From NCBI GenBank assembly GCA_028713935.1, contig JAQTNI010000022.1, positions 1 through 21,013 of the forward strand: DNA of 21,013 nucleotides, written 5' to 3'. This DNA comes from Candidatus Iainarchaeum sp. GTDB lineage: Archaea; Iainarchaeota; Iainarchaeia; Iainarchaeales; GCA-2688035. Under the pieces are notes generated by a model that was given only the letters and a program-made list of their open reading frames with translations, searched no databases and was not told the origin of the DNA. Made by a program: the position numbers and the translations under genes. This document shows, in pieces, positions 960 to 21,013 of the stretch. The number at the start of each line of letters is the position of its first letter. The stretch's first letter is position 1.

Positions 960-984
960 TTTCCCCATGGCACCACTTAATTAG

Positions 985-994
985 GATATTATAG
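985..994 (-). promoter_or_regulatory. TATA-like box for the leftward GT2 gene.
   Basis: The minus strand reads CTATAATATC, centred about 30 nt upstream of the ATG at 959. There is no Shine-Dalgarno sequence in between. This fits an archaeal TATA box with a short or absent leader, or alternatively a bacterial -10 element. Confidence 0.3.
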
Positions 995-3231: not shown

Positions 3232-3258
3232 AAAGAAAAATTTTTTTGAGTGCCGATT

Positions 3259-5343: not shown

Positions 5344-5418
5344 TGTTTACCAAAGATTCAAGATTCTTTCTTTTTGGCACCCTACATTTTTCTTTCTTCC
5401 CAAGAAAGAAAAAGGCGG
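5344..5418 (+). repeat. Conserved 75-nt intergenic element, copy 1, containing Py-tract A, an 11-nt linker, Py-tract B, a CCC loop and Pu-tract C.
   Basis: A is 5364-5375 TTCTTTCTTTTT. The linker is 5376-5386 GGCACCCTACA. B is 5387-5398 TTTTTCTTTCTT. The loop is 5399-5401 CCC. C is 5402-5413 AAGAAAGAAAAA. B and C form a perfect 12-bp inverted repeat, and A is the exact mirror of B. An ungapped alignment to the reverse complement of 19089-19163 gives 54/75 identities. The element is followed by GGCGGAGGTG (SD-like, 5414-5423) and the ATG at 5429. Confidence 0.75.
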
Positions 5419-5428
5419 AGGTGCGAAA

Positions 5429-8591: not shown

Positions 8592-9691
8592 AAAAAATAG
8601 CAATTGTTTTTGGGACAAGGCCTGAAATAATAAAATTGGCTGAAATAATCCTGCTTTTGAAAAAAGAGAAAAGTGTGCAGGCGCTTCTTGTTTTCACTGG
8701 CCAGCATTATGATTACGGCTTGTTCGGAGTTTTCATGAAAGAGCTTGATTTGCCTGAGCCGGACATTAATCTTGGAATTGGTTCAGGAACCCAGGCATAT
8801 CAAATTGGGACAATGCTGATGAAGCTTGAAGAATATTTCCAGAAAGAAAAGCCAGACATTGTCACTGCACTGGGAGACACAAATTCTGTTTTTGGCGCTG
8901 CTCTTGCAGCGGAAAAAGCGCAAATTCCATTTGCCCATATAGAGGCGGGAATCAGGAGCTTTGACAGGAGCATGCCTGAAGAAGTAAACAGGGTTCTCAC
9001 AGACCAGATTTCAAGCTACTGTTTTGCGCCAACAAAAACAGCAGTTGAAAACCTTCACAAAAGCGAAGCATTTAAGCATAGGATTTTCCTCACTGGAAAT
9101 CCAATAGTGGAAGTGGTTGAAAAAAATCTTGAGAGGGCGGGAAAATCACAAATTCTTGGACAGCTGAACCTTGAAAAAGAAAAATTTGTTGTCCTCACAA
9201 TGCACCGCGCTGAAAATGTTGACAGCAGGGAAAAGCTTGAAAACATTGCAATTGCGCTGCAGGCAATAAAATGGCCAGTTGTGTTCCCAATGCATCCGAG
9301 GACAAAGGCCAAGATTGCGGAATTTGGCTTGAAGGAAAAATTTGAATGCATAAAAAATTTGGTTGTTGCTGAGCCCCTTGGCTATTTTGATTTTTTGCAG
9401 TTGTGCGCAAACTCGCGCTATATCCTGTCTGATTCTGGGGGGATACAGGAAGAGGCGACTGTTTACAAAAAATTTGTAATTATTCTCAGGGAGAACACTG
9501 AAAGGCCTGAGATTCTGGGAAAATTCGGGGTTTTAACCGGCTTTAATGCCAAAAAAATAATTGCGGCAGCAGGCAAAATTGAAAAGGATTATCCTGCACT
9601 GAAAAAAAAATTGGAAAAAAGGAACTGCCCCTTTGGGGACGGAAATGCAAGCAGGAGAATTGTTGAAAAGATTGCGGGGGCGGTGCAATAA
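8588..9691 (+). CDS. wecB: UDP-N-acetylglucosamine 2-epimerase (WecB/MnaA family).
   Basis: The product is 367 aa with an ATGA overlap onto the upstream stop. Motifs seen: KKIAIVFGTRPEIIKLAEI, FAHIEAGIRSFDRSMPEEVNRVLTDQIS, LTMHRAENVD and LSDSGGIQEEA. Confidence 0.9.
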   Translation: MKKIAIVFGTRPEIIKLAEIILLLKKEKSVQALLVFTGQHYDYGLFGVFMKELDLPEPDINLGIGSGTQAYQIGTMLMKLEEYFQKEKPDIVTALGDTNSVFGAALAAEKAQIPFAHIEAGIRSFDRSMPEEVNRVLTDQISSYCFAPTKTAVENLHKSEAFKHRIFLTGNPIVEVVEKNLERAGKSQILGQLNLEKEKFVVLTMHRAENVDSREKLENIAIALQAIKWPVVFPMHPRTKAKIAEFGLKEKFECIKNLVVAEPLGYFDFLQLCANSRYILSDSGGIQEEATVYKKFVIILRENTERPEILGKFGVLTGFNAKKIIAAAGKIEKDYPALKKKLEKRNCPFGDGNASRRIVEKIAGAVQ

Positions 9692-10743
9692 AAGTCCTCT
9701 TTAATACTTCGCAGGGCGCCTTCAAAAGCCCGGGAGGCGGGGAAATCCAGCTCTTAAAAACAAAGCAGGGGCTTGAAAAGCTCGGCCTGGAAATAGAAAT
9801 TTTTAACGGAACGCAAAGAATTCCTGATTTTGATTTGCTGCACAATTTCAGCATTCACAGGGACACTTTTCCAGTTGTGCAAAAAGCATTCGAGGCAAAA
9901 GTGCCTGTTGCAATTTCAACAATTTATTGGCCTTCGCTCAAGCATTCCCTGTTATGGAACAGGGGCCTTGGGAAAAAAGCAAGGGCGCTTGCCGTAGAAT
10001 TAATTAACAGGCTGGATTTTTTCGGGTTTTCAAGCGTAAAAAAAACACTGAGGCGAGCAGATTTGCTTCTTCCGAATTCAGAAACAGAGAAAAAAATTGT
10101 TTTGGATTATTTTGGCGTGAAAAAAGAGAGAATAGTTCCTATTGTAAATGGCGTTGATGAAAGATTCAAAGATGCAAATTCAAAAGAATTTGAGCAAAAA
10201 TTCGGGCTCAAGAATTTTGTTTTATATGTGGGGAGAATTGAGGAAAGAAAAAATGTGCTCTCGCTCGTGCGTGCAATGAAGGATTCAAAGGAAAAACTTG
10301 TGATTATTGGCAATGCAAAATATGGCAGTGAAAAATATGCAGAAAAATGCAGGGAAGAAGCGGGAAAAAACACTGTTTTTTTGCCTGGGATTCCGCATGA
10401 GTCAGGCCTGCTTGAAAGCGCTTATGCAGCGTGCAGGGTTTTCGCATTGCCAAGCTGGTATGAAACTCCCGGGCTTGCAGCGCTTGAAGCCGGGCTTGCA
10501 GGCGCAAACATTGTGATTACACAGGAAGGCTGCACAAAAGAGTATTTTGGCGAGTTTGCGTCTTATGTGAATCCTGCGAGCGTAAAGGACATCAGGGAAA
10601 AAATTTTTTTTGAATTTGAAAAAGCGGGAAATAAAGGGCTGCAACAGCGCATAATGAAAAATTTTTTGTGGAAAAACACTGCCCTGCGGACTTTTGAGGC
10701 CTACAAAAAAATAGCAAAAACTGAAAAAAATAGAAGCGATTGA
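9688..10743 (+). CDS. GT4 glycosyltransferase whose conserved N-terminus lacks a canonical start codon. It is either ATA-initiated or a start-codon-mutated gene.
   Basis: The track ORF starts at a TTG at 9835. The same frame is open from 9667 and encodes (I)KVLFNTSQGAFKSPGGGEIQLLKTKQGLEKLGLEIEIFNG, a typical GT4 N-terminal beta1 strand and Gly-rich loop. No ATG, GTG or TTG occurs in frame between 9667 and 9835. ATA at 9688-9690 overlaps the wecB TAA as ATAA. The C-terminal part has ETPGLAALEAGLAGANIV (EX7E). Confidence 0.7.
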   Translation: MKVLFNTSQGAFKSPGGGEIQLLKTKQGLEKLGLEIEIFNGTQRIPDFDLLHNFSIHRDTFPVVQKAFEAKVPVAISTIYWPSLKHSLLWNRGLGKKARALAVELINRLDFFGFSSVKKTLRRADLLLPNSETEKKIVLDYFGVKKERIVPIVNGVDERFKDANSKEFEQKFGLKNFVLYVGRIEERKNVLSLVRAMKDSKEKLVIIGNAKYGSEKYAEKCREEAGKNTVFLPGIPHESGLLESAYAACRVFALPSWYETPGLAALEAGLAGANIVITQEGCTKEYFGEFASYVNPASVKDIREKIFFEFEKAGNKGLQQRIMKNFLWKNTALRTFEAYKKIAKTEKNRSD

Positions 10744-10870
10744 GTGGCGGATTGCATGGCAATGAAAAAATTGGCGGGAAACCAGCTTGGACTGCCTGAA
10801 AAGCACTGGCTTGAAAATGCAATCTTTGAATTATGCACCATAAATTCTTTTATATTTTTTATCCATAGAT

Positions 10871-10882
10871 TAATTAAATAAC
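10871..10882 (+). promoter_or_regulatory. TATA-like A/T box upstream of the NeuB-family gene.
   Basis: TTAATTAAATAA lies 24-35 nt upstream of the ATG at 10906. A second A/T box, TTTATATT, lies at about 10848-10855. The 162-nt intergenic gap follows the end of the long plus-strand operon. Confidence 0.3.
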
Positions 10883-10905
10883 AAAAAATCCAAACAGCGG
10901 TAAAA

Positions 10906-11970
10906 ATGAACGAAATAAGCATAGATGGCAGAAAAATAGGCGGAAAAAACAGGTGCTTTGTCATTGCCGAGGCGGGTTCCAATTTTAGGATATCGGCAAA
11001 CGAGAAAAAAAATTTTCGCCAGGCTTTGAGGCTGATTGACATTGCCGCGGAAGCCGGCGCTGATGCAGTCAAATTTCAGCTTTACAGGGCAAAAAAACTT
11101 TATGTTGCAGATGCCGGCAGAGCGGATTATTTGAAGCAAAAAAAACCAATTAATTCAATAATAAGGGAAATGGAGCTTCCTTTTGAATGGATCCCAAGGC
11201 TTGGAAAATATTGCAAAAAAAAAGGCATTGTCTTTCTCTGCACTCCTTTTGACACAGAGGCCGTTGACGAACTTGAGAAAGCGGGAATATCCGCTTACAA
11301 GGTCGGTTCGTATGCAATAAGCCATCTGCCCCTGATAAAATACATAGCGCGCAAGGCAAAACCGGTTATTCTTTCATGCGGGGCATCTGATTATGGGAAA
11401 ATAAAAAAAGCAATAGGCACAATAAAAAGCTCTGGAAACAGCAGGATAGTGCTGATGCAGTGCACAACAAAATACCCTACTCCGCTCTCGGCAATTAATC
11501 TCAGGAGCATCCCTTACCTAAGCAAAAAGTTCAGGGTCATTGCAGGATTGTCAGACCATTCACGGGAACCCCTGATCGCCCCCCTTGGAGCTGTCGCGCT
11601 TGGGGCAAAGGCAATTGAAAAGCATTTCACCACTGATAACTCACTGCCTGGGCCTGACCATAAATTTGCAGTTCTTCCAGATGAGTTAAAGGAAATGGTT
11701 TCGGGCATAAGAAAGCTTGAAGAAGCAATGGGAAAAACCGGCAAGCAAATTCTTGACGAGGAAAAAGAGCTTTTTAATTTCTGCGACCTCGGGATTTTTG
11801 CAATAAAAAAAATTCACTCCGGAGAGATTTTTTCGGAAGGAAATATTGCGGTGTTAAGGCCGGGAAAAAATAAAAAAGGCCTTGCACCGGAATTTTTTGA
11901 TGAAGTTATTGGAAAAAAAGCAAAAAAAAACATTGGAAAAAATCAGCCATTGAAAAGAACTGATTTCTGA
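10906..11970 (+). CDS. pseI: Nonulosonic acid synthase of the NeuB/PseI/LegI family (N-acetylneuraminate or pseudaminate synthase) with a C-terminal SAF domain.
   Basis: The product is 354 aa. Motifs seen: CFVIAEAGSNF, GADAVKFQ, GLSDHS, and a C-terminal SAF-like region IKKIHSGEIFSEGNIAVLRPG. The pse assignment over neu or leg is inferred only from the neighbouring PseB-like and PseH-like genes. Confidence 0.85.
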   Translation: MNEISIDGRKIGGKNRCFVIAEAGSNFRISANEKKNFRQALRLIDIAAEAGADAVKFQLYRAKKLYVADAGRADYLKQKKPINSIIREMELPFEWIPRLGKYCKKKGIVFLCTPFDTEAVDELEKAGISAYKVGSYAISHLPLIKYIARKAKPVILSCGASDYGKIKKAIGTIKSSGNSRIVLMQCTTKYPTPLSAINLRSIPYLSKKFRVIAGLSDHSREPLIAPLGAVALGAKAIEKHFTTDNSLPGPDHKFAVLPDELKEMVSGIRKLEEAMGKTGKQILDEEKELFNFCDLGIFAIKKIHSGEIFSEGNIAVLRPGKNKKGLAPEFFDEVIGKKAKKNIGKNQPLKRTDF

Positions 11971-11983
11971 CAATAATTGGGCA

Positions 11984-13147
11984 TTAAACTTTTTCAAGGA
12001 CAATTTTCTGGATACTGAAACCGAGTTTTTTGAAAAGCCCAAGTGACTCCTTATTTTCCGGTTTTATTTCAGCAAAGCACCCATTAAGGTCGAGCTTTTT
12101 CAGGCTGTTGAAAGCAATGCCTCTGCCGCGGTATTTTTTTTCAAGCGCTATTGAAACCAATTTTTTGTCAATGCGGATCAAGCCGACAGGGCTGCTGCCT
12201 AAAATAATGGCAAAAGCGGCAAATTTTCCAGACCTAAGCTTTCTTTTCCAGTATCTTTTGTTCTGTTCTTCAGTTATTTTTTTGGGGGAAAAAGAATTGC
12301 GCCTTATGCCCGGGTCATTCATGAGGCATGCAATCCACTTGAGATCGCCATTGTTCACGCGCCTTAGGCCCGGGGCGCACTTTGCATTGGCAAAACCCTG
12401 CCTGACTTTTTTTGTATTTTGCCTGTATTTTTCCTCTTCTTCAGCACTCTGAAGCAGCAAAGCAGGGTTCTCATCAAGAAACTGTATTGCCCTTGAAACC
12501 GAAACAAAAAAACCGAATTTGGAAAAAATTTTTTTAATCAGTTCAAAATCAGTTATTGTATCAACACAAAATCTCAGTTCAGGCCTGAAAAGCCTTCCCC
12601 TGGCGGAAAAAGAACCGAGCCTAAAGCCGCTTTTTTTTCCATACATAAAATGGGTCACATGCTCCCTGTCAAAGCTGTCTTCCGCTTTTTCAAAGGCTTT
12701 CCTGAGCGCATTAAAAGAAAAAACCTCCACATCAAGGCCCCTGGGAAAACTCCGTTCTGTAATGTTGCTGGCATAATCATAATTCCCTTTATCAAAAAGT
12801 TTTACTGCCTCATCGACAGTCTTCGGGTCTATAAGCGGGCAGTCGGCTGTTATTCTTACAACAGTGCCAAGATTGAACAATTTTGCGCATTCAAAAAAAC
12901 GCCCGAGGACATCCTGCTCGGAACCAGCGAAAAATTTTATTTTATTTTTTTTGCAGTATCCTATTATTGCCCTGTCTTTTTTATTCTCTGTGGTTGCAAC
13001 AATTATTGTCCTGACGGCCCTGCATTTTTGAAGGCGCTTTACCACAATGCCCAGGACAGGGACCCCTTTTATTTTCATCAGTGATTTGCCCGGCAATCTG
13101 CTTGAACCCATTCTTGCCTGAATAATTATGCCCGCAGAATTTTTCAT
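11984..13147 (-). CDS. Fusion of an acylneuraminate-type cytidylyltransferase (SpsF/PseF-like, CTP_transf_3) with a C-terminal GNAT N-acetyltransferase (PseH-like).
   Basis: The product is 387 aa. The N-terminus GIIIQARMGSSRLPGKSLMKIKGVPVL...VRITADCPLIDP...FPRGLDVEVF is the SpsF/CMP-sugar synthetase pattern. From about residue 250, LRRVNNGDLKWIACLMNDPGIRRNSF...EEQNKRYW...YRGRGIA...NKESLGLFKKLGF is a GNAT fold of the PseH type. Confidence 0.8.
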   Translation of the reverse strand: MKNSAGIIIQARMGSSRLPGKSLMKIKGVPVLGIVVKRLQKCRAVRTIIVATTENKKDRAIIGYCKKNKIKFFAGSEQDVLGRFFECAKLFNLGTVVRITADCPLIDPKTVDEAVKLFDKGNYDYASNITERSFPRGLDVEVFSFNALRKAFEKAEDSFDREHVTHFMYGKKSGFRLGSFSARGRLFRPELRFCVDTITDFELIKKIFSKFGFFVSVSRAIQFLDENPALLLQSAEEEEKYRQNTKKVRQGFANAKCAPGLRRVNNGDLKWIACLMNDPGIRRNSFSPKKITEEQNKRYWKRKLRSGKFAAFAIILGSSPVGLIRIDKKLVSIALEKKYRGRGIAFNSLKKLDLNGCFAEIKPENKESLGLFKKLGFSIQKIVLEKV

Positions 13148-13185
13148 TTAAACCAGCCAATCCGAAGAATGTTTTCAAAGCGCGG

Positions 13186-14193
13186 CTATCCGCCAATTAT
13201 CTTCAAATCCAGAAGCATTTTTTCCAGTTCGCCTGGATTTACAAGGGAATCCTTGCTGCAGTAGGATGAAAAATCAACCTTCTTCTTTTCCTTTAAATAG
13301 GCATACTTGACATTTTGGTAACAATCAATCTGGCTTAATACTGCAAAAGCGCTTCCGAGGTCATATGCCCTTGTGCATTCATCCTCATTCATGAGAATCT
13401 CGTGGATCTTTTCTCCGGGCCTTATGCCTGTTTCCTTGACTCCGGCCCTGGAAGAATAATGCTTCTTAAGGACGCCAATGAGGTCCACAACCTTAAGGCT
13501 TTTAAGTTTTGGAACAAAAATTTCCCCGCCAACACCGTGCTTCAGGGCCATAAAAATCAGGCCTACCGCCTGTTTTGGGGTTATAATAAAGCGCGTCATC
13601 CTGTCATCAGTCAGAGGAATTTGCTCGCATTTTTTTATTTTTTCCACAAAATAAGGAATAACACTGCCTGTGCTTTCAAGCACATTGCCATATCTCACGC
13701 TGATAAAGGAGGTTTTTGATTTTCCCTTGCTGTAATTGCTCTCAATAAAAATTTTTTCGCCGAGCATTTTTGTCGCCCCATAACTGTTAATAGGGCTGCA
13801 TGCCTTGTCAGTTGAAACAAAAACTGCCTTTTCAACATTGTTCTTGAGGCAGGCATTCACAACATTCATTGTGCCCATAACATTTGTCTTTACTGCCTCC
13901 ATTACATTGTATTCAATAAGGTCAATCCTTTTCATTGCCGCAGCGTGAATTACAATATTGGCATCCTTCATTGCCCTTTCAAGCCGTTCATAATCCCTTA
14001 CGTCACCGACAAGGCACCTTATTCTTGCGTCGTTATTGAATTCTTCCTGAATCCTGTGGTGCTTGACTTCGTCCCTGCTGAAAACCCGTATGCTGTGGAC
14101 GCCCAGCGGAAGAAGCTCGCCCACAAGGCTTCTGCCAAGAAACCCTGTCCCGCCCGTAATCAGCACTGTTTTGCCCTTAAAAAAATCCTTCAT
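13186..14193 (-). CDS. pseB: UDP-N-acetylglucosamine 4,6-dehydratase, PseB/FlaA1/CapD (Polysacc_synt_2) family.
   Basis: The product is 335 aa. Motifs seen: FKGKTVLITGGTGFLGRSLV, VFSRDEVKH, VGDVRDYERL, YGATKMLGEK (YxxxK) and RYGNVLESTGSVIPYF. Confidence 0.85.
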   Translation of the reverse strand: MKDFFKGKTVLITGGTGFLGRSLVGELLPLGVHSIRVFSRDEVKHHRIQEEFNNDARIRCLVGDVRDYERLERAMKDANIVIHAAAMKRIDLIEYNVMEAVKTNVMGTMNVVNACLKNNVEKAVFVSTDKACSPINSYGATKMLGEKIFIESNYSKGKSKTSFISVRYGNVLESTGSVIPYFVEKIKKCEQIPLTDDRMTRFIITPKQAVGLIFMALKHGVGGEIFVPKLKSLKVVDLIGVLKKHYSSRAGVKETGIRPGEKIHEILMNEDECTRAYDLGSAFAVLSQIDCYQNVKYAYLKEKKKVDFSSYCSKDSLVNPGELEKMLLDLKIIGG

Positions 14194-14321
14194 TCAAATC
14201 AGCTTCAAATATAAAAAAGGTTAATTCTATTTAAATATTAAGAATTGTTAAAAACTTTTAAAATGCGCTGGTACAAGCCTCGAATGCCCTTTGAGGGAAT
14301 CTTTTTTAAAGGACTTTAAAG

Positions 14322-14336
14322 CCAGAATAATTCTGG
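14322..14336. promoter_or_regulatory. 15-bp palindrome directly upstream of the 569-aa gene.
   Basis: CCAGAATAATTCTGG has 7-bp perfect arms and a 1-nt centre. It ends 6 nt before the ATG at 14343 and lies within the 149-nt divergent intergenic region shared with pseB. Confidence 0.35.
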
Positions 14337-14342
14337 TAATTC

Positions 14343-16052
14343 ATGGCAAAACTTGTTCTCATCAGCGGAAACGAAAATCTTGATTCGCTGGGCGAAAGCA
14401 TTGGCAGGAACGCAAAAATCCTTCTCCTGAACCCTGAATTCCAAGAAATCCTGAGCGAGAAAAAATTGGAGTTTGTCACCCCTGACAAAATGGTCGGGGA
14501 AAAAATCAGGGGCAGGCTGCTTGAAAAAGCGGTTTCAATAACACAAGAACTTGAAAAAAGCGGCATTGAATACAAGGGCATTAACCTGATGCGGGCAAAG
14601 TCCTGCGAGCTCACGAGGCAGCTTTACATTTCTTTCTTCGAGGCACTTGCCCTCGCCAATGCGGTAAAAAAATTTTCCCCTGAAGAAACAATCGCTTGCA
14701 GAAACACAAAAGGCGAAGAATACCTTGCAGTGCTTGGAATAAAAAACAAAAAAATTATTTGCTGCGGAGAAAAAAAAATGGGGGGGCTTTTCCTTGACCA
14801 TGCAAAAAAACGCGCTGGCCAGATAAGCGGGAAACTTCTTGCAATAATCGCGCCTTCCCCCAAAAAAAAAGCAAATTCGATAACTGTTTTTTCAAAATCG
14901 CGGGGTTATTTTGATGAATTGCAAAACAGGCTTGCGCAAAGCAAGGGCTTCGATTTGTTTTCAACAGAAGAGGCGCTTCTGAGGCATTCACTGAACCCGA
15001 AAAACTGGCTTGAAAAAAACACAATGCCCGATGCAATAAGGAACAAAGCCGAAAAAGCGCTCCTTGAAAAATCCATAATTAAAAAATGCGTTATTGAAAA
15101 AACAGACTTTTCCGGGCTTGTCAGGAGCGCTGTGAAAAATTCAGTTGAAAGCGATTTTCCAAAATATGCGGGATTCATCAATGCAATGGAAAAGGAATTC
15201 GTGAAAAGAAAGCCCAAAATAGTGCTGTTATGGGTCGATTCAGTGCCTTTTGAAAGAATAACCGCGCTTCTTGCAAAAAAATTTTGCTCTGTTTCAGTTG
15301 TTTTGCAGCACGGCATTCCGGCTGCAGACAGGCTTCTGCTAAAAGGCTGGCTTCCTGGATTTGCCCCGCTCACTGCGGATTTCTTTTTCAGCTGGGGAAA
15401 AAACACTTCAAGGCTCATGCGTTTCCACAACGTTCCTGAAAAACGGATTTTCGAAACCGGAAACCCGAGATTTGAGGAAATAGTTACAAAAAAATTCGAA
15501 AGGCAAAAAACAATGGAAAAGCTCGGAATCAAAAAAAGCGGAAAAATAATTCTTGTGCTTACCCAGCCAATGTTCTATGGCTTCAACCCAATGGAAATGG
15601 CAAGAGCCGCAATCAATGCTGCAGAAAAGAATCCCGGTGTGAACTGTGTGATAAAAACTCACCCGGTGGAGCATTTTTCGGGATATGAAAAAAGATTCGC
15701 AAAAAGAGCCATAATAAGCAGGAAAATTTCACTGCATGAGCTCATAGATGCTGCTGATGCGGTAATAGGGAACAGCTCTACAAGCCTTATCGAGGCAATG
15801 CTCTTTGAAAAGCCAGTTATAATTTTTGACCCGGGAAAAACCGCGGGCTTTTATGAAAAAAACAGCGCAGTGCTCTATGCGGGGAATGCACGTGAACTTG
15901 AAGGCGCAGTAAGGTCTGTTTTTGAAAAACCTGAAACCCTGAAACTGCTGGGCAAAGCCAGAAAAGAATTCCTGAAAAAAGAACTGGAATTTGTTGAAAA
16001 CTCCGGCGAAAAAACAATAGGGCTTCTGAAAAAAATTGCAGGGGAAAACTAG
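14343..16052 (+). CDS. Large soluble protein with an unassigned N-terminal half and a C-terminal GT-B-like domain that resembles TagF, capsule polymerase or sialyltransferase families (HP motif).
   Basis: This is a 569-aa ORF with lysine-rich codon usage like its neighbours. The C-terminal half has ILVLTQPMFYG, VIKTHPVEH and LIDAADAVIGNSSTSLIEAMLFEKPVIIFDPG. The order and spacing of these motifs recall the PT-R / HP / D-SS-P-IIF motifs of TagF-like and capsule or sialyl-transferase GT-B enzymes. I recognise no motif in residues 1 to ~280. Confidence 0.45.
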   Translation: MAKLVLISGNENLDSLGESIGRNAKILLLNPEFQEILSEKKLEFVTPDKMVGEKIRGRLLEKAVSITQELEKSGIEYKGINLMRAKSCELTRQLYISFFEALALANAVKKFSPEETIACRNTKGEEYLAVLGIKNKKIICCGEKKMGGLFLDHAKKRAGQISGKLLAIIAPSPKKKANSITVFSKSRGYFDELQNRLAQSKGFDLFSTEEALLRHSLNPKNWLEKNTMPDAIRNKAEKALLEKSIIKKCVIEKTDFSGLVRSAVKNSVESDFPKYAGFINAMEKEFVKRKPKIVLLWVDSVPFERITALLAKKFCSVSVVLQHGIPAADRLLLKGWLPGFAPLTADFFFSWGKNTSRLMRFHNVPEKRIFETGNPRFEEIVTKKFERQKTMEKLGIKKSGKIILVLTQPMFYGFNPMEMARAAINAAEKNPGVNCVIKTHPVEHFSGYEKRFAKRAIISRKISLHELIDAADAVIGNSSTSLIEAMLFEKPVIIFDPGKTAGFYEKNSAVLYAGNARELEGAVRSVFEKPETLKLLGKARKEFLKKELEFVENSGEKTIGLLKKIAGEN

Positions 16053-17650
16053 CCATTTATTTCATAAACCTTTGAGCATTCTGACCTGAAAACAGGCACC
16101 AATAGTTTCCGGCTTTCAAGCTCTGCGAGCGCCCCTGGATTCCAGGGGTTTTTAGAACAGGTCCAGAGAAGGTAATCCACTTTCGAATTTGCCTTGAGGC
16201 CCTTCAGGACTGCATAGAGCTTTTCGGCATTCATTGCGGCATATTCGTCCCAGTCCCTGTTTGCATCATGGTTGCCGAAAAAAATTATTCCCCTTACAAG
16301 GTGCCTCTGTGCAACAAGCCTTGAATCTTCAGGCAGTGTTTTTATGAATTCATAAGCGGGCCTTGCCTCTGCAAAGGACTTTTCATAATAGAGGGCAGTG
16401 GAAACCATGAAGCCAAGGGAATAAACAACGGTAAGCAAGAACAATGCAAGCACAACTTTTCCGATGACCGGCTTTGATTCCCTAAGCCCAAGCAGGCCTC
16501 TTGCAAAAAAAATTCCAAAAAAAGGAAGCACGGGAAGCAGCATTCTCATGCTTATTATTCTCTGAAGCCTTTCTGCAAAAGGCACTGCCGCAAAAATAAA
16601 AAGCAGTAAAATCAAGAGCCAATATTTTTCCCTTTTAAACATTATTAGCAGAAAGCCGCAGATAGTTACTGCCAGAATCGGGAACGTCAGAATGGCAAAA
16701 AGCAATCTGAGTGTTTCAATTGAAAAAATTCCCATGAAAGGCACATTGCTCTGCAGCGAATACGGCAGGAAAAACCAGAAGGACTCGTTAAACTGCACAA
16801 TGAAGTCCGGAGGGCTGTTCAGGGGGGAATCAACAAGAGTGAAAGAGCCGGCTTCTGTGAGGTTTTTTATCTCGGAAGTATTAGAAGGGAAGAATTTCTG
16901 GAAAAAACTTAGTTCCGGGTGCTCAATGCTCTGCCTTTGGAAGTCTGAAAAATACCAGAAGCTTGAAAGCAGAAATGTTGCGAGCGCGATTGCGACCGCT
17001 ATTTTTTTTGCGTGCTTTACCTTTGACCTTACACTGTAAAAAACAATTGCGAGCAGGAAAACAGGAAGCAGAATCATTGCAGTCAGTTTTGAAAGTGCGG
17101 CGGCAGAAACAGCAAAAGGAAGAAGGAAAAGAAAGGCAGTGTTTTTTGTCCTTTCAAATTTGACCAGGAGGTATACTGAAAAAAGCACAAACAGCGCCGC
17201 AAAGGAATCCGGGTAATTTACTGACGAGTAAATTCCAAAAACAGGCTGAATTGCGGCAAACAGGAAGGCAATGAGCGCAAGCGAACTGCCCTTGCCGTAA
17301 CTTTCGAAAAAAAGCCTGCAGATGAGAAAAACAAGCCCGAGCTGCAGGAGCATTACTGCAAGCGGAAAAAAAGCAATCAGGTCAAAATTGAATTCAGTGC
17401 CTGAGGCTATGAAAAGATTTGCAATTGCCACGTGAAAAAACTGGGGCGGCAACTCCCCATTTATTCCCTGCCAGGCAAGTTCCTTTGCATCAGAATTAAA
17501 TGGCATTGCGCCTGTTTTTGAAATCTCCTTCGCAATTGACAGATGGTAAATGGTGTCTGTGTAGGCAGTGTCGGGAAGCATTACTGCTGTAAAAATCCTT
17601 GCAACAAGGACAATTGCAATAAGCACGAAAATAATTTTTTTTAGTTCCAT
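16049..17650 (-). CDS. Polytopic membrane protein, GT-C-fold (ArnT/PMT-like, polyprenyl-phosphate-sugar dependent) glycosyltransferase candidate.
   Basis: The product is 533 aa with about 11-13 hydrophobic helices across residues 1-400. The first extracytoplasmic loop, LPDTAYTDTIYHLSIAKEISKTG, resembles the acidic-loop/aromatic motif of ArnT/PMT_2. The C-terminal ~130 residues form a soluble domain. No WWDYG motif is present, so it is not a canonical AglB/STT3. Its ATG at 17650 directly abuts the TGA of the upstream radical SAM gene. Confidence 0.5.
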   Translation of the reverse strand: MELKKIIFVLIAIVLVARIFTAVMLPDTAYTDTIYHLSIAKEISKTGAMPFNSDAKELAWQGINGELPPQFFHVAIANLFIASGTEFNFDLIAFFPLAVMLLQLGLVFLICRLFFESYGKGSSLALIAFLFAAIQPVFGIYSSVNYPDSFAALFVLFSVYLLVKFERTKNTAFLFLLPFAVSAAALSKLTAMILLPVFLLAIVFYSVRSKVKHAKKIAVAIALATFLLSSFWYFSDFQRQSIEHPELSFFQKFFPSNTSEIKNLTEAGSFTLVDSPLNSPPDFIVQFNESFWFFLPYSLQSNVPFMGIFSIETLRLLFAILTFPILAVTICGFLLIMFKREKYWLLILLLFIFAAVPFAERLQRIISMRMLLPVLPFFGIFFARGLLGLRESKPVIGKVVLALFLLTVVYSLGFMVSTALYYEKSFAEARPAYEFIKTLPEDSRLVAQRHLVRGIIFFGNHDANRDWDEYAAMNAEKLYAVLKGLKANSKVDYLLWTCSKNPWNPGALAELESRKLLVPVFRSECSKVYEING

Positions 17651-18943
17651 TCAATCACTGTTTTTTTTGAAAAAAATATTTTTTAAATATTTAAAGCCAG
17701 CAAAAATGAGCCTCGGGTTCCGGATAATCCTTTTCAGCGCAAACCCCGGCCTGAAATAAATTTCCTTGTATGCCTTCTTGTACATTCTCTCAACGAGTTC
17801 CTTGTTCAAAGCGCCGAGCTCGTAGTAACAGGTTCCCGAGTAAGACCCGTATTTTGAAAAATCTTTTTCAAGGAATTTTCCATTTTCCTTTACCATCGAA
17901 TACAAATGGGTTCCGGGATACGGTGTTGTGATTGTAAACTGGGCAAGGTCAAGGTCAAGTGTTTTTGCAAAATTAATTGTTTCAAGCATTGTTTGCTCTG
18001 TGTCAAAAGGCAGGGCAATCATGAAAAAACCGATTGTTTCAATCCCTGTTTCTTTTGCCCATTTTGCCGCTTTCCTCACCTGTTCAAGAGTGATTTTTTT
18101 TCCAATCTTGTCAAGAACTTCCTGATTCCCAGATTCAATGCCGAAAGAAAGCTGGTAACAGCCTGCTTTTTTCATAAGTCGCAATAATTCCGGGCTTAAT
18201 GTGTCAACTCTCACGCCATTGGGGCAGTTCCATTTTATTTTCAGGCCCCTTTCAATTATGCCATGGCATATTTCCTCAACGCGCTTCCTGCTCAAGGTGA
18301 AATTGTCATCAACAAACCCTATTTCTTCAATGCCATAATTTTCAACCAAATAAGAAATTTCATCAAGGACATTTCGCGCGCTTCTTGCGCGGTAAAGCCT
18401 TCCGAAAGTGCCCTTGTAGCAATACACGCAGCCAAAAGGGCAGCCACGCGAAGTCATTATTGACAAAAATTTTTTCCTGCGCGTGGGAGAAGAATATTTT
18501 TCAAGAGGCAGCCCGCTCCAGTCCGGAAATGGCAATTCGTCAAGGTCCCCTGCCAAATCGCTTTTGAGTATTTTCTTTTTTGAAGAAAATATTTTCAGGA
18601 TGCTTTTTTCCCCTTCTCCCACAACAATCTTGTCGGCGTGCTTCAGTGATTCGCGCGGAAAAATAGTCACATGAGGTCCGCCGAGAACAACCATTACTCC
18701 CTGCTTCCTGAGCCTGTCGGCAAGCTCGAAAGCCTTTGCCGCGGTAGGAGTGTAAACGCTCAGCCCAACCCACTCAGTCCTGATTTTTTCAATTTTCTGG
18801 CCTGCGGCCTCGTCAATTACAAAAACCCTTATTCCTGAATTCTTCAGCACTGCCTGCAGATAGGCAAGCCAGAGCGGCGGAGAAGGGTGTGTTGCATAGC
18901 CTGTCCCTGAAAAATTAATCAGGGTAATTGAATGGAGTTTCAT
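17651..18943 (-). CDS. B12-binding-domain radical SAM protein (class B / COG1032-like).
   Basis: The product is 430 aa from the ATG at 18943; the track start at 18952 is a TTG. The N-terminal Rossmann-like region reads PPLWLAYLQAVLKNSGIRVFVIDE...VVLGGPHVTIFP...VVGEGE. The cluster motif is SRGCPFGCVYCYKG (Cx3Cx2C), followed by FGIESGNQEVLDKIGK. Confidence 0.85.
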   Translation of the reverse strand: MKLHSITLINFSGTGYATHPSPPLWLAYLQAVLKNSGIRVFVIDEAAGQKIEKIRTEWVGLSVYTPTAAKAFELADRLRKQGVMVVLGGPHVTIFPRESLKHADKIVVGEGEKSILKIFSSKKKILKSDLAGDLDELPFPDWSGLPLEKYSSPTRRKKFLSIMTSRGCPFGCVYCYKGTFGRLYRARSARNVLDEISYLVENYGIEEIGFVDDNFTLSRKRVEEICHGIIERGLKIKWNCPNGVRVDTLSPELLRLMKKAGCYQLSFGIESGNQEVLDKIGKKITLEQVRKAAKWAKETGIETIGFFMIALPFDTEQTMLETINFAKTLDLDLAQFTITTPYPGTHLYSMVKENGKFLEKDFSKYGSYSGTCYYELGALNKELVERMYKKAYKEIYFRPGFALKRIIRNPRLIFAGFKYLKNIFFKKNSD

Positions 18944-19088
18944 AAAAATCAATTTCAGATTTTAATTATTGAACCAGTATTGTTTAAATAACAAATCAAG
19001 CATTTAAAATTATAAATTAACATATTGCTTTAATCAAAACAGGCAAAAAAGCGGTTAAAATTCAAATTGGTTTAATCCTCGAATTATC

Positions 19089-19163
19089 CCGCCCTTCTTT
19101 TCTTTTCAAAAGAAAAGAAGTGTAGGGTGCCTAAGAAAAGAAATCTTGAATTGTTGATAAACA
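19089..19163 (-). repeat. Conserved 75-nt intergenic element, copy 2, in inverted orientation relative to copy 1.
   Basis: The minus strand reads TGTTTATCAACAATTCAAGA-TTTCTTTTCTT-A-GGCACCCTACA-CTTCTTTTCTTTT-G-AAAAGAAAAGAAG-GGCGG. In plus-strand coordinates, A' is 19143-19133, the linker is 19131-19121, B' is 19120-19108 and C' is 19106-19094. B' and C' form a 13-bp perfect inverted repeat. A' is the parallel Hoogsteen match to 11 positions of C'. The 11-nt linker is identical to copy 1. Confidence 0.75.
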
Positions 19164-19182
19164 AACGCAAAAAGTGTTACAA

Positions 19183-20604
19183 ATGAATGTCCTTTTCCTT
19201 AACCCGCCGTTTCACGATAATGCCACTTTCAACAGGGAAGTAAGGTTCCAGGCAGTTTCGCCCCAAAAAGCGCTGCACCCGCCGCTGTTGCTTGCATATG
19301 CCGCGGCTGTCTGCAAAAAAGAAGGCCACACCGTGGATTTAATCGATGCGCCCGCGCTTGAAATTTCAAGGGAAAAAACAATTGTAATGGCAAAAAAATT
19401 TTTGCCTGGGCTTATTGTAATGCTCACTTCAACAGCGTCAGTTGAATCTGACGGGGCGCTTGCAAAAGAGCTTGGAAAAGAAACAAATGCAAAAACAATT
19501 GCAGTGGGAGTGCATGCAACTGCAGTCCCTGAAGACACACTGAAAAAAGGCTTTGACATCATTGCAAGGGGGGAATATGAATACACAATCAGGGAGCTTG
19601 CAGAAAAAGCACGTTTGGAAAAAGTGCTTGGAATTTCCTACAAAAAAAACAAGAAATTCATGCATAATAAAAACCGCCCTTTGATTGAAAACCTGGATGA
19701 ACTGCCATTTCCTGCACGCGAACTCCTGCCAAATGAAAAATATTACAGCGCGCTTTACAAGAACCCTTTCACTTTTATTCTTGCAGGGAGAGGCTGCCCC
19801 CAGCAATGCATTTTCTGCGCAGGCCCGCAATTGATGTCGGGCCGCAGGTATAGATTCAGGAGCCCGCGCAACATAGTGGATGAGCTGAAGCACATTAAAA
19901 AAAATTTTCCGAAACTGAAAAGCGTTTTGTTCAATGATGATACCTTGAATGTAAACAAAAAACACATTCTTGAAACCTGCGATTTGATGATCAAGGAAAA
20001 AATAAATTTGCCATGGGCTGCCTATTCAAGGGTTGATTCTGTGGATGAGGAAATTGCGCAAAAAATGAAAAAAGCGGGCTGCTTTCTTGTAAAAGTCGGG
20101 TTTGAATCCGGCAATGACGAAATTTTAAGGTCAATGAAAAAAGGCCCGCGTGCAACAGCGGAACAGGGAAAAAAATGCGCTGAAATTTTCAGCAAGGCAG
20201 GAATACAGGTGCACGGCACCTTTGTTTTTGGAATGCCCGGGGAAACAAAAGAAACAATCCAGAAAACAATTGATTACGCAAAAAAACTTGACATTGATTT
20301 TGTGCAGTTCTCAATTGCACAGCCCTATCCTGGCACTGAATTTTTTGAAATCCTGAAAAAGCAGGGTTATCTGAAATTTGGCGATTGGTCGGAATTCCTT
20401 GACAAGGAAGGCTGCATTACGCCGATTTTTGAATACCCAAACCTGAAAGCAGGGGAAATGGAAAAATTTTTGAAAAAGGCTTACAGGCAGTATTATTTCA
20501 GGCCAAAATACATTGCAAAAGCAGTAAAACAGAGGCTCACAAACAGGGAGCTTGCAAAAACAAGCCTGCGAAGCGCCTGGAATCTTGTAAAATATTTGAA
20601 ATAA
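19183..20604 (+). CDS. B12-binding-domain radical SAM protein, paralogue of the gene at 3259-4701.
   Basis: The product is 473 aa from the ATG at 19183; the track start at 19174 is a GTG. MNVLFLNPPF...PPLLLAYAAAVCKKEGHTVDLIDAP parallels the N-terminus of the 3259 gene. The cluster motif is GRGCPQQCIFCAG (Cx3Cx2C). It shares with its paralogue FNDDTL/LEDDTF, PW(A/S), GFESG(N/S) and the C-terminal YYFRPKY/FYLRPGY. Confidence 0.85.
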   Translation: MNVLFLNPPFHDNATFNREVRFQAVSPQKALHPPLLLAYAAAVCKKEGHTVDLIDAPALEISREKTIVMAKKFLPGLIVMLTSTASVESDGALAKELGKETNAKTIAVGVHATAVPEDTLKKGFDIIARGEYEYTIRELAEKARLEKVLGISYKKNKKFMHNKNRPLIENLDELPFPARELLPNEKYYSALYKNPFTFILAGRGCPQQCIFCAGPQLMSGRRYRFRSPRNIVDELKHIKKNFPKLKSVLFNDDTLNVNKKHILETCDLMIKEKINLPWAAYSRVDSVDEEIAQKMKKAGCFLVKVGFESGNDEILRSMKKGPRATAEQGKKCAEIFSKAGIQVHGTFVFGMPGETKETIQKTIDYAKKLDIDFVQFSIAQPYPGTEFFEILKKQGYLKFGDWSEFLDKEGCITPIFEYPNLKAGEMEKFLKKAYRQYYFRPKYIAKAVKQRLTNRELAKTSLRSAWNLVKYLK

Positions 20605-20610
20605 ATAAAC

Positions 20611-21013
20611 TTATTTTTTCAGCTGAAAAACAACGCTTGAGCCGAATCTTTTCATTGCGCCCTTCCCAATCCTCAATTCCCCATTTGCAAGAAAATGCCA
20701 CAGCCTTGCAAAAACAGCCGAATTGATTTTCTTTGGAATTATGTTGCTGATCAGGGGAAGCGGAAAAACAAGAATCGAATGCATTCCAAAAATTTCAAAG
20801 CCTGTTTTTTCCAGCATTCCAAGGGTTTTTTTCCAGTGCTGTTCAGTGTGCTGCTCCCTTGAGTACTCAATCTTTGGGCAGGAATACAGTTTTGCCTTCT
20901 GGAAAAAATGCACAAGCTTCCACAAAATGCTCTGGGAATTTGGAACAGAAATAACTGCTTTTGCGTGTGCTTTCAAAACACGGAAAATTTCATCAAAGCC
21001 CTTCTGCATTTCA
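20611..21013 (-). CDS. Class I SAM-dependent methyltransferase, C-terminal part only; the 5' end lies beyond the right edge of the window.
   Basis: The frame stays open through the last full in-window codon upstream of the track's Met at 21009 (GAA at 21012-21010), so that Met is probably internal. FDEIFRVLKAHAKAVISVPN followed by LEKTGFEIFG matches the post-motif-II/III region of the methyltransferase at 4711-5337 (GKIIVSVPN...IENSGFEIEKI). The SAM-binding motif I is outside the window. Confidence 0.7.
   Translation of the reverse strand, partial: EMQKGFDEIFRVLKAHAKAVISVPNSQSILWKLVHFFQKAKLYSCPKIEYSREQHTEQHWKKTLGMLEKTGFEIFGMHSILVFPLPLISNIIPKKINSAVFARLWHFLANGELRIGKGAMKRFGSSVVFQLKK

Follow-up and report, generated by a model that had tools for sequence, protein, structure and literature searches.

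A 75-nt element with co-varying tracts in a DPANN archaeon: a possible dispersed insertion element with an intrastrand-triplex fold

Two copies of a 75-nt element were found in the window, which is the whole 21-kb contig (21,013 nt) of a MAG of Candidatus Iainarchaeum, a DPANN archaeon. They lie in opposite orientations and in unrelated contexts. The three tracts of the element differ strongly between the copies while the pairing register is kept, and copy 2 is a recent, lineage-specific insertion rather than a conserved leader of the radical-SAM genes beside it. The explanation that we favour, tentatively and at slightly less than an even chance, is that of a lineage-specific, non-autonomous dispersed insertion element of about 75 nt, whose single-strand fold is an intrastrand triplex, and not that of a conserved regulator. 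Three components of this explanation are inferred: that a triplex forms, which strand is active and what kind of enzyme mobilises the element.

Anatomy and genomic position of the two copies

Read 5' to 3', each copy opens with a constant arm of 20 nt, followed by tract A (12 nt, pyrimidine) and the constant 11-nt linker GGCACCCTACA. Next comes a 12-bp hairpin whose 5' arm (B) consists of pyrimidines and whose 3' arm (C) consists of purines, and GGCGG closes the element (Table 1). In both copies A, B and C occupy alignment columns 21-32, 44-55 and 59-70. Recomputing the alignment of copy 1 with the reverse complement of copy 2 reproduced the ungapped 54/75 identities reported in an earlier note on this DNA, together with its partial counts of 17/20 in the 5' arm, 11/11 in the linker and 5/5 in GGCGG (33/36 over the constant parts), as against 21/39 in the tracts and loop (A 7/12, B 7/13, loop 0/2, C 7/12). 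The hairpin of copy 2, previously described as 13 bp long, has 12 bp and a 3-nt loop, because a T56-A58 pair would give a loop of 1 nt.

Similarity between the copies ends abruptly at TGTTTA and at GGCGG. These ends are not inverted repeats of each other, and the comparison of filled with empty sites reveals no target duplication. In an independent repeat search, no inverted repeat of the window was longer than the one formed by exactly these two copies (I1, 75 nt, 72%), and the linker has two exact matches in the whole window, one per copy.

Each copy lies in intergenic DNA, 10-20 nt from a start codon. Copy 1 is inside a co-directional gene string, where it occupies the spacer from a methyltransferase stop codon (5335-5337) to the Shine-Dalgarno sequence and ATG (5429) of a GT2 glycosyltransferase, 10 nt 5' of that ATG. 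Copy 2 lies where two B12 radical-SAM genes diverge, in a spacer that measures 239 nt (18944-19182) rather than the 230 nt first given; the distances from copy 2 to the ATGs at 18943 (about 145 nt) and 19183 (19 nt) stand. Both copies face a transcription unit that reads inwards, in each case part of one glycosylation cluster. This cluster, which is variable, lies between them.

Table 1 Features of the two copies and their immediate context. RNA folding energies are from ViennaRNA and count Watson-Crick and G.U pairs only.
Feature	Position	Strand	Remarks
Copy 1 of the 75-nt element	5344..5418	+	covariance model score 102.3 bits
Copy 1 constant 5' arm TGTTTACCAAAGATTCAAGA, columns 1-20	5344..5363	+	17/20 identical to copy 2
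Copy 1 tract A TTCTTTCTTTTT, candidate Hoogsteen strand	5364..5375	+	parallel T.A-T / C.G-C match to C 12/12
Copy 1 constant linker GGCACCCTACA	5376..5386	+	11/11 identical
Copy 1 hairpin	5387..5413	+	12 bp; RNA folding energy -9.0 kcal/mol
Copy 1 B arm TTTTTCTTTCTT	5387-5398	+	pyrimidine side of hairpin
Copy 1 loop CCC	5399-5401	+	
Copy 1 C arm AAGAAAGAAAAA	5402-5413	+	purine side of hairpin
Copy 1 constant 3' end GGCGG	5414..5418	+	5/5 identical; runs into GT2 Shine-Dalgarno GGAGGTG
Copy 2 of the element	19089..19163	-	covariance model score 103.6 bits; insertion found on this contig alone
Copy 2 constant 5' arm TGTTTATCAACAATTCAAGA	19144..19163	-	from alignment to copy 1
Copy 2 tract A TTTCTTTTCTTA	19132..19143	-	parallel match to C 11/12; last position A.G-C
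Copy 2 constant linker GGCACCCTACA	19121..19131	-	exact match
Copy 2 hairpin	19094..19120	-	12 bp; RNA folding energy -10.6 kcal/mol
Copy 2 B arm CTTCTTTTCTTT	19120-19109	-	pyrimidine side of hairpin
Copy 2 loop TGA	19108-19106	-	
Copy 2 C arm AAAGAAAAGAAG	19105-19094	-	purine side of hairpin
Copy 2 constant 3' end GGCGG	19089..19093	-	identical to copy 1
AACGC, uncertain status	19164..19168	.	extra inserted bases or diverged target DNA, from empty-site alignments
Promoter-like block TTAAAATTCAAATTGGTTTAATCCTCGAATTATC, context	19055..19088	+	conserved in all related lineages; copy 2 directly downstream

Co-variation of the three tracts

The differences between the copies are concentrated in the tracts, at 18/39 positions against 3/36 in the constant parts (Fisher p = 2.8e-4), a divergence about five times higher. 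Sixteen tract positions differ, with the hairpin and third-strand register kept and tract lengths unchanged at 12, 13 and 12 nt. The Watson-Crick register (columns summing to 114) and the parallel offset (+38) are common to both copies, as the earlier note had proposed. All hairpin pairs are Watson-Crick in each copy (12/12, 24/24 cells) and 5/12 have changed on both sides, whereas sliding the partner by 1-3 columns gives 0-1 double-changed pairs. On the pyrimidine strand A is the mirror of B in the sum-76 register, at 12/12 positions in copy 1 and 11/12 in copy 2, across a G+C-rich spacer of 11 bp. As the hairpin is intact and A stays the mirror of B, A can serve as a parallel Hoogsteen partner of C. 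The result is 12 triplets of the T.A-T or C.G-C type in copy 1, and in copy 2 the 11 correct parallel triplets counted previously plus one A.G-C at columns 32/70/44.

This triple concordance is beyond chance low complexity, as had been claimed. In addition to the five compensatory double changes, a shuffled A tract equals the observed match in just 1.5% (copy 1) and 0.5% (copy 2) of trials, and each 11-nt third-strand word turns up once when both strands (42 kb) are scanned, namely at the A tract. No other all-pyrimidine/all-purine hairpin of at least 9 bp, and no other instance of the triple motif, was found in ~240 kb of related archaeal loci.

Rival readings of A were compared by enumerating all 66 pyrimidine 12-mers with two C. 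An antiparallel A:C helix at least as long as observed is reached by 50/66 of these tracts in copy 1 and 15/66 in copy 2, a direct repeat with B at least as long as observed by 15/66 and 5/66, and the observed parallel match by 1/66 and 3/66. The exact positions of C are best explained by the Hoogsteen/mirror relation because the fewest two-C tracts reach the parallel match; after allowing for post hoc choice of register, we estimate that the parallel reading is favoured ~15-80-fold. Each tract holds two C only and the core words TTCTTTCTT and TTCTTTTCTT are mirror-symmetric, so that the evidence for a mirror over a direct relation comes from the register and a few flanking T. The earlier proposal of selection on a triplex or mirror-hairpin geometry is thus borne out in part: the five double changes support the hairpin, and the parallel reading of A is preferred to two rivals, in a data set of two copies with two C per tract.

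Class IV of the intrastrand triplexes is defined by the order Hoogsteen, pyrimidine, purine (PMC4666352), which is the order of A, B and C in both copies. The class IV triplet rule (stem of at least 8 nt, at most one mismatch) also holds, with 12/12 and 11/12 triplets. For loops, the limits cited in that source are 1-6 nt (ITxF) and 0-10 nt (Hoyne et al.) (PMC4666352); the hairpin loop of the element has 3 nt, and the 11-nt linker exceeds the short-loop rule.

Insertion site of copy 2 and searches for further copies

Five related lineages (L050/L051, L075-L084, L049, L085/L086) carry an empty site of the form ...CGAATTRT-(14-19 nt)-ATG, where the window has 94 nt. All five retain the divergent radical-SAM pair, the promoter block and spacer DNA that is ~90% identical or clearly homologous, and the element is missing from the orthologous spacer in the more distant L046 and L047 too. 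Gene order is retained on both sides of the site, with PMT_2(-) and rSAM(-) on one side and rSAM(+) on the other. Copy 2 is therefore seen as a discrete insertion in a conserved spacer, with no target duplication, terminal inverted repeat or rearrangement; as AACGC may be inserted bases or diverged target DNA, its length is 75-79 nt.

A conserved role of copy 2 as a regulatory leader for the radical-SAM genes finds no support, since five lineages have the same gene pair without the element. A long leader of the minus-strand gene is unlikely, because an AT-rich, TATA-like region lies between copy 2 and the ATG of that gene. Of the roles suggested earlier, a strand-independent one at the DNA level fared better, in that a DNA-level or mobile-element reading is the best fit.

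Loci L042/L043, whose GT2 homologues are more distant (56-60% aa), have the radical-SAM gene directly followed by GT2 with a 23-nt spacer, and lack both the element and the methyltransferase gene. No empty site for copy 1 was recovered: the L049 methyltransferase and GT2 are just 29-36% identical to those of the window and hence not orthologous. The closest relative is P0242 (87% aa). Copy 1 is flanked by TTGACC and AGGTG, copy 2 by TGCGTT and GATAAT, and no shared target motif or short target abutting one end is visible at the two sites.

Searches over all Rfam families (E <= 10), ENE models included, gave no match at either copy. A covariance model (R1), the route to further copies envisaged in the earlier note, returned the two known copies alone over ~200 kb of related loci. 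The pattern TTCAAGA-N8-16-GGCACCCTACA had 41 matches in GTDB representative genomes, all chance or coding and none with pyrimidine tracts. In the JGI metagenomes, a pattern of linker, Y9...R9 and GGC had 0 matches, and the 23 matches to a 5' arm pattern were all unrelated. Two scans of viral contigs (IMG/VR) gave 0 matches and 1 chance match, and blastn against plasmids and phages gave no meaningful match. The 21-kb contig holds no transposase, recombinase, invertase or Y1/HUH gene. The known copies number two, both on this one contig, and the existence of a 'family' is accordingly a prediction.

Proposed biology, rival explanations and known systems

In the favoured explanation, the selected unit would be the fold of a single strand. 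The element strand would form a pyrimidine-motif intrastrand triplex of class IV (T.A-T or U.A-U with two isolated C+.G-C triplets, which require protonation), and the same tracts on the complementary DNA strand would fit the purine motif of class II (A.A-T, G.G-C). Since the fold is kept in unrelated contexts and opposite orientations, and the tracts are so much more divergent than the rest, we would expect a larger family with tract-variant subfamilies elsewhere in the same genome or population. This family may spread through a single-stranded intermediate, with an enzyme encoded elsewhere, most likely a structure-specific one of the HUH/Y1 type, recognising the hairpin with its third strand, the constant arm, the linker and GGCGG. 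Local side effects would follow at both sites: copy 1 would put a stable structure right before the GT2 ribosome-binding site, and the complement strand of copy 2 would take up the short 5' UTR of the radical-SAM gene on the plus strand. In the block at 19055-19088, our assignments of a TATA box and a transcription start are putative; if the TATA-like block at 19055-19061 drives the plus-strand gene, copy 2 would be transcribed as the complement strand. A one-off duplication followed by selection in place could also have produced the two copies. The wider proposal of an unseen archaeal mobile-repeat family, whose spread or function depends on a contiguous 12-triple pyrimidine-motif intrastrand triplex in DNA or RNA, is one that we put forward as unlikely but with a real chance of being right.

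The same tracts could belong to a repeat that has a hairpin and no triplex, which we consider rather unlikely. Here A would match B as a short direct repeat of a low-complexity word, slippage or templated correction could homogenise A and B, and quasipalindrome correction could keep B:C perfect. A and B do have direct words in common, TTCTTTCTT (9 nt) and TTCTTTTCTT (10 nt), both mirror-symmetric; A can pair antiparallel with C over 9 and 11 bp (-6.6 and -8.0 kcal/mol with B blocked); and the stems are slippery, with the minimum-energy fold of copy 2 picking a shifted register. Yet among two-C tracts with a direct repeat of the observed length only 1/15 (copy 1) and 1/5 (copy 2) give the parallel match, as do 1/50 and 3/15 of those with the antiparallel pairing, and the direct offset is 26 in copy 1 but 23 in copy 2, the antiparallel sum 88 and 91, while the tract lengths and the +38 register are constant. 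An improbable reading is that of a cis-acting structured RNA, in which the element-sense transcript folds a U.A-U/C+.G-C triple helix on its own hairpin and tunes translation or stability of the downstream glycosylation genes, possibly by exchanging A as third strand for a state in which A and the linker pair with the ribosome-binding site and start codon. The position of copy 1 just ahead of the GT2 ATG in a co-directional string, the inward-reading units faced by both copies, and a tract order (Hoogsteen U, Watson-Crick U, then A) that RNA can fold are all consistent with it. Moreover, an RNA of 101 nt around copy 1 has a folding energy of -29.3 kcal/mol (z = -3.9); in this fold GCACC in the linker pairs with GGUGC in the Shine-Dalgarno sequence, and A pairs through its 3' half with AAAAUGAAAG. 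However, this ribosome-binding-site pairing is limited to copy 1, there is no Rfam match, and none of the relatives examined has the element ahead of its orthologous genes. At copy 2 the element-sense strand is ~146 nt from the minus-strand ATG with the TATA-like AT-rich region in between, has no co-oriented gene upstream to read through it, and folds no better than shuffles (z = -1.6). The likely copy-2 transcript is instead the complement strand, with the purine motif, and whereas pyrimidine-motif intrastrand triplexes occur in RNA, the purine motif does not form there (PMC4666352).

It is quite improbable that, in duplex DNA, the A/B mirror repeat (as H-DNA) and the B/C palindrome (as a cruciform) respond to supercoiling near promoters and thereby modulate transcription independently of strand or promote rearrangement of the glycosylation island. 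The mirror relation in the sum-76 register of both copies, their intergenic positions close to start codons in opposite orientations, the closeness of copy 2, a few bases further downstream, to a conserved promoter-like block and the greater rearrangement reported for E. coli triplex-repeat loci (PMC4666352) are in keeping with this reading. Against it, the synteny around copy 2 is undisturbed, C co-varies although H-DNA has no need of it, and the constancy of arm, linker and GGCGG is left unexplained. The 11-bp G+C-rich spacer between the mirror halves is also long for H-DNA. A last reading takes 5344-19163 to be a 13.8-kb mobile island with the copies as its terminal inverted repeats, or an invertible segment that recombines at them; it is scarcely credible, and the empty-site alignments already come close to refuting it. 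The copies do form the longest inverted repeat in the window, with the 5' arms outermost and the variable cluster in between; but both flanks of copy 2 are syntenic with element-free relatives, which makes copy 2 a simple insertion rather than a junction, the window has no transposase or invertase, and the arms are 72% identical with compensated differences.

Several known feature types were also set aside by eye: a sigma-54 promoter (the host is archaeal, and the TGGCAC that occurs here has no TTGC to go with it at -12); a C/D-box or H/ACA sRNA or K-turn (no box motifs, no tandem G.A pairs); an archaeal origin ORB pair (copies 13.7 kb apart, no orc1/cdc6 gene); an oligo-T or intrinsic terminator (no co-oriented gene ahead of copy 2); MALAT1-like 3'-end protection (for the same reason, and because the A tract is internal); and a composite transposon or invertible segment (copy-2 synteny intact).

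The dispersed element with a triplex fold that we favour is best read as an archaeal analogue, AT-rich and of the pyrimidine motif, of the BoxC/PIT repeats in bacteria, dispersed elements known to have the potential for intrastrand triplexes (PMC4666352). Like it, PIT repeats (BoxC/TMECO, ITxF classes; Hoyne and Maher 2000, cited in Holder et al. 2015, PMC4666352) have three consecutive same-strand tracts obeying triplet rules, are short, dispersed and intergenic, vary in presence among close relatives, show no consistent relation to gene orientation and have a coupled motif class on the complementary strand; the element strand fits PIT class IV with its 5' Hoogsteen tract. BoxC/TMECO differ in being G/C-rich, purine-motif class II repeats of proteobacteria and cyanobacteria, of the form CCCTCNCCC-N3-6-GGGNGAGGG-N3-GGGNGAGGG, with highly conserved copies. 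The tracts of our element are T/A-rich with two C/G each and do not follow that pattern; it has 12-nt stems, a conserved 11-nt first loop outside the 1-6 and 0-10 nt definitions, long constant flanks, a DPANN host and three-way compensated differences between copies. The BoxC/PIT copies are too uniform for covariation to show a use of the triplex in cells (PMC4666352).

Triple helices of an ENE with an A-rich tract (PAN, MALAT1/MENbeta, transposable-element dENEs) share with the element a U.A-U major-groove triplex with isolated C+.G-C. They also share the strand order, which in MALAT1 is Hoogsteen U-tract, Watson-Crick U-tract, A-tract. The 11-12 triples of the element are within the capability of RNA (PMC7102945; PMC4836648), an RNA triplex with 11 consecutive triples having been solved (PMC7102945), and some ENEs are part of mobile elements (PMC13541005). 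ENEs are, however, U-rich internal loops clamped by stems that capture a 3'-terminal A tract or poly(A) and shield it from 3' decay, whereas the A-rich strand here is internal, being the 3' hairpin arm joined to the U strand by a 3-nt loop and followed by GGCGG and a gene.

Among mobile elements, those related to REP/RAYT and the palindrome-associated elements derived from IS200/IS605 are, like the element, short and non-coding, with a hairpin beside conserved single-stranded bases. They move as single-stranded DNA, the hairpin being recognised by a Y1/HUH enzyme. The absence of terminal inverted repeats and target duplication and the subterminal hairpin agree with this type, but no Y1 transposase is seen in the contig, the two sites share no 4-5-nt target, a single hairpin takes the place of left and right ends, and there is a third, co-varying tract. 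MITEs (Correia, BOX and RUP of bacteria, Sulfolobus SM elements) are also insertions of small size in intergenic DNA, non-autonomous and able to be co-transcribed and to fold stably as RNA, yet are defined by the terminal inverted repeats and target-site duplications that the element lacks. H-DNA mirror repeats resemble it in the mirror images A and B on the pyrimidine strand, and differ in the G+C-rich spacer and in the palindromic partner C, which permits a single-strand fold of three tracts.

For annotation, these results mean that neither the long 5' region of the radical-SAM gene on the plus strand nor the odd spacer between methyltransferase and GT2 is a conserved leader; both are insertions. 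If no further copies exist, the element would be a one-contig curiosity. Compensated tract changes are, however, the same kind of signal that established RNA helices, and if the fold is real, co-changing tracts would be rare evolutionary evidence that triplex folds matter in cells. Should the wider proposal of an archaeal family be true, it would provide the first covariation evidence for in vivo selection of an intrastrand triplex and the first such element in archaea, and the variable tracts might define subfamilies. Confirmation by more copies would amount to direct evolutionary evidence for a selected triple helix and would offer biophysics a compact natural 12-triple scaffold, and DPANN archaea would then have a small mobile element of a new structural class.

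Concordance of the three tracts

A 75-nt element occurs twice in the window in opposite orientations, and its two copies are exactly the arms of the window's longest inverted repeat. The element strand carries, 5' to 3', a 20-nt constant arm, tract A (columns 21-32), an 11-nt linker, the B arm, a loop, the C arm and GGCGG. Recomputing the alignment gave the gap-free 54/75 identities claimed in the earlier note, with near-invariant outer parts (5' arm 17/20, linker GGCACCCTACA 11/11, GGCGG 5/5) and only 21/39 identities in the tracts and loop. Similarity ends at both edges of the 75 nt, and all three tracts keep their lengths.

Both copies share one Watson-Crick register, as proposed, columns 44-55 pairing with 59-70 (24/24 cells Watson-Crick); this stem has 12 bp and a 3-nt loop, not the 13 bp claimed for copy 2. 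Both sides have changed in 5 of the 12 pairs, against 0-1 doubly changed pairs when the partner is shifted by 1-3 columns. Read in parallel at the shared Hoogsteen offset of +38, tract A fits the purine arm with 12/12 T.A-T or C.G-C matches in copy 1 and 11 of 12 in copy 2, where the final position is A.G-C. Because A+.G-C triples are reported from Tetrahymena telomerase RNA (PMC13541005), this position (32) could also join the triplex.

That such concordance exceeds chance is borne out in several ways. Differences between the copies pile up in the tracts (18/39, versus 3/36 elsewhere; Fisher p = 2.8e-4), shuffles of tract A equal the observed match in 1.5% of trials for copy 1 and 0.5% for copy 2, and a search of the two strands of the window together finds each 11-nt third-strand word a single time, in tract A. 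Scans of both strands of ~240 kb of related archaeal loci revealed no other all-pyrimidine/all-purine hairpin of at least 9 bp, and the upstream parallel partner was present solely in the element orientation.

Since each tract has two C and the core words TTCTTTCTT and TTCTTTTCTT are mirror-symmetric, tract A doubles as a direct repeat of part of B and is able to form an antiparallel helix with C. With B blocked, the antiparallel A:C helices reach 9 and 11 bp (-6.6 and -8.0 kcal/mol), versus -9.0 (copy 1) and -10.6 kcal/mol (copy 2) for the B:C hairpins. Among all 66 pyrimidine 12-mers with two C, an antiparallel helix at least as long as that observed is formed by 50 for copy 1 and 15 for copy 2; because T can pair with A as well as with G, the C positions are scarcely fixed by this constraint. 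A direct repeat with B of at least the observed length is reached by 15/66 and 5/66, and the observed parallel match by 1/66 and 3/66, respectively. The parallel register is constant between the copies; the offset of the direct repeat shifts from 26 to 23, and the sum of the antiparallel pairing from 88 to 91. Allowing for post-hoc choice of register, and with two sequences only, this is moderate evidence for the mirror (Hoogsteen) reading, which we estimate to be favoured ~15-80-fold over either rival.

Genomic sites of the two copies

The plus-strand radical-SAM gene beside copy 2 has relatives with 78-86% amino-acid identity among the retrievable contigs. All retain a promoter-like block, ...TTWAAAWTYCAARYTGGTTTAAT..TCGAA..., and all keep the divergent radical-SAM pair except L049, a contig in which the minus-strand gene is absent and PMT_2 stands opposite. 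In L050 and L051 the spacer is ~90% identical to that of the window and reads ...GAATTATC|GAAAAGTGTTCAAAAATG, where the window has ...GAATTATC[CCGCCC...GATAAACA AACG]CAAAAAGTGTTACAAATG. The same empty site is found in the Rifle lineage (L075-L084), in L049 and in L085/L086, and no element was found at the orthologous spacer of the more distant L046 and L047. Gene order is intact on either side of copy 2 relative to these relatives, and filled and empty sites differ by neither a target duplication nor terminal inverted repeats. On these grounds, copy 2 is most parsimoniously a recent, clean 75-79-nt insertion in this lineage alone.

The empty sites exclude a conserved leader with which the radical-SAM genes would be regulated. 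A long leader is also an unlikely reading for the minus-strand gene, whose AT-rich TATA-like sequences separate the element from its ATG. The unbroken synteny at copy 2 contradicts the idea that the two copies bound a composite transposon or an invertible segment. The view that selection conserved the structure stands in part: the fold was kept while its sequence changed, and the mirror geometry is the favoured one. The element is a young insertion, not a conserved regulator. The divergent spacer itself measures 239 nt, not 230.

Lying 15-20 nt before the ATG of the plus-strand B12 radical-SAM gene, the promoter-like block is conserved in at least five Iainarchaeota lineages, much more strongly than the remaining spacer. 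The gene pair may share it as a TATA/initiation region, or a regulator of the pair may bind there. Archaeal promoters place TATA ~26 nt upstream of the start. From the TATA-like block at 19055-19061, transcription of the plus-strand gene would start near 19084, and the element would then fill its 5' UTR as the complement strand. On that strand the tracts run pyrimidine, purine, purine, a purine-motif arrangement; purine-motif triplexes form in DNA, not in RNA (PMC4666352).

Copy 1, which lies between a stop codon and the ribosome-binding site of GT2, is probably read in the element sense as part of the surrounding transcript. Its RNA is predicted to fold so that the Shine-Dalgarno sequence and AUG are hidden (-29.3 kcal/mol, z = -3.9), a pairing limited to this copy. 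The constant linker includes CACC(C)U, resembling the anti-Shine-Dalgarno end of 16S rRNA, and its predicted pairing partner in copy 1 is the GT2 Shine-Dalgarno sequence; the constant GGCGG is Shine-Dalgarno-like in its own right. At two loci with more distant GT2 homologues (L042/L043; 56-60% amino-acid identity), GT2 directly follows a radical-SAM gene across a 23-nt spacer, with neither methyltransferase gene nor element; no true empty site for copy 1 was recovered among the related loci examined. The GT2 of the window has 390 aa, versus 317-349 aa in nearly all of its 120 best homologues, and appears to hold ~65 aa of additional sequence.

An 8-mer lies 10 nt and 5 nt beyond the 5' ends of copies 1 and 2, on the plus strand at both, so that its polarity with respect to the element differs between the copies. 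The L050 empty site has GAAAAGTG, which makes the 8-mer part of the target; it could reflect a preferred target sequence or chance in A-rich DNA.

Positions of features in the window and in related contigs
Feature	Position	Remark
Copy 1	5344-5418 (+)	methyltransferase stop codon to GT2 ATG (5429)
Copy 2	19089-19163 (-)	between B12 radical-SAM ATGs 18943 (-) and 19183 (+)
8-mer AAAAAGTG	5326-5333; 19169-19176	
Linker, copy 1	5376-5386	
GT2 Shine-Dalgarno GGAGGUGC	5417-5424	
GT2 after copy 1	5429-6601	
Promoter-like block, window	19055-19088	conserved
Promoter-like block, L050	1738-1774	conserved
Promoter-like block, L075	~9950-9985	conserved
Promoter-like block, L049	~6305-6340	conserved
Promoter-like block, L085	~462-497	conserved
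B12 radical-SAM paralogues	3250-4701; 17651-18943; 19183-20604	
Contig-start gene	1-985 (-)	GT2 glycosyltransferase (MGKMPFLSIVIPTYNSG...FEVIVVDD...)
Contig-end gene	20611-21013 (-)	resembles methyltransferase
Inverted repeat I2	829-869 / 5516-5556	common GT2 'EVIVVDDGS' coding motif
Hairpin, L049	6200-6218	CTTTCTTT-TCC-AAAGAAAG

A surface-glycosylation cluster

The window, a whole contig of a DPANN (Iainarchaeota/Diapherotrites) MAG, is a surface-glycosylation cluster, with GT2 and GT4 transferases, two epimerases, NeuB, a cytidylyltransferase, a PseB-like dehydratase, PMT_2, methyltransferases and three B12-binding radical-SAM paralogues. Several Iainarchaeota contigs share the divergent radical-SAM pair flanked by PMT_2 and, at its other end, by GT2, suggesting a conserved, uncharacterised module for the modification of sugars or glycans. 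Both contig ends cut genes absent from the ORF list; at the far end, a shorter ORF (20611-21009) lacks a Pfam match. As the minus-strand gene at the contig start is real, the plus-strand ORFs 372-728 and 631-984 are probably spurious.

Affinities and origin of the element

No real third copy emerged when GTDB genomes, JGI metagenomes and IMG/VR were searched by pattern, blastn against plasmids and phages gave no real match, and a covariance model applied to 200 kb of related loci recovered solely the two known copies. A smaller hairpin of the same style, 8 bp with all-pyrimidine and all-purine arms, lies ~45 nt upstream of PMT_2 in L049; it has no third tract or constant parts and scores 12 bits with the covariance model.

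The nearest known kind are the bacterial potential intrastrand triplex (PIT) repeats BoxC/PIT/TMECO and the ITxF motif classes (PMC4666352). BoxC/PIT/TMECO share with the element its three-tract logic, dispersed intergenic habit and presence or absence between relatives (PMC4666352), but are purine-motif and G/C-rich, whereas the element is pyrimidine-motif and A/T-rich. Its stem length of 12, an 11-nt conserved linker outside their search definitions, its constant flanks, host domain and compensated variation also set it apart. ENE/MALAT1 triple helices are alike in U.A-U/C+.G-C chemistry and strand order; an ENE is ruled out, as the element has no internal-loop clamp or 3'-terminal A tract, and neither copy matches Rfam. 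An RNA triplex with 11 consecutive triples has been solved (PMC7102945). The lack of terminal inverted repeats and target duplication places the element outside the definition of a MITE.

Our tentative best explanation, at slightly less than an even chance, is a lineage-specific dispersed insertion element selected for its single-strand fold. The element strand would form a class IV pyrimidine-motif intrastrand triplex of ten T.A-T (U.A-U) and two isolated C+.G-C triplets; on the complementary DNA strand, the class II purine motif is satisfied at all 12 positions; the constant arm, linker and GGCGG would be recognition or scaffold parts. The tracts have diverged ~5x as much as the constant parts, every difference being compensated. 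As independent neutral decay after insertion would have broken the pairing, each copy most likely traces back to its own tract-variant member of a larger, unseen family. Single-stranded DNA elements moved by HUH/Y1 enzymes leave no target duplication, lack terminal inverted repeats and carry a hairpin beside conserved single-stranded bases. The element has these same traits, so the most likely route would be mobilisation as single-stranded DNA by an HUH/Y1-type enzyme; neither a target motif shared by both sites nor a gene for such an enzyme was found in the window.

The insertion, the element's boundaries and the concordance of the three tracts are shown directly; triplex folding, the family, the strand and the enzyme are inferred. 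All the evidence comes from two copies, and the importance of the element would rise sharply if further copies extended the three-way covariation.
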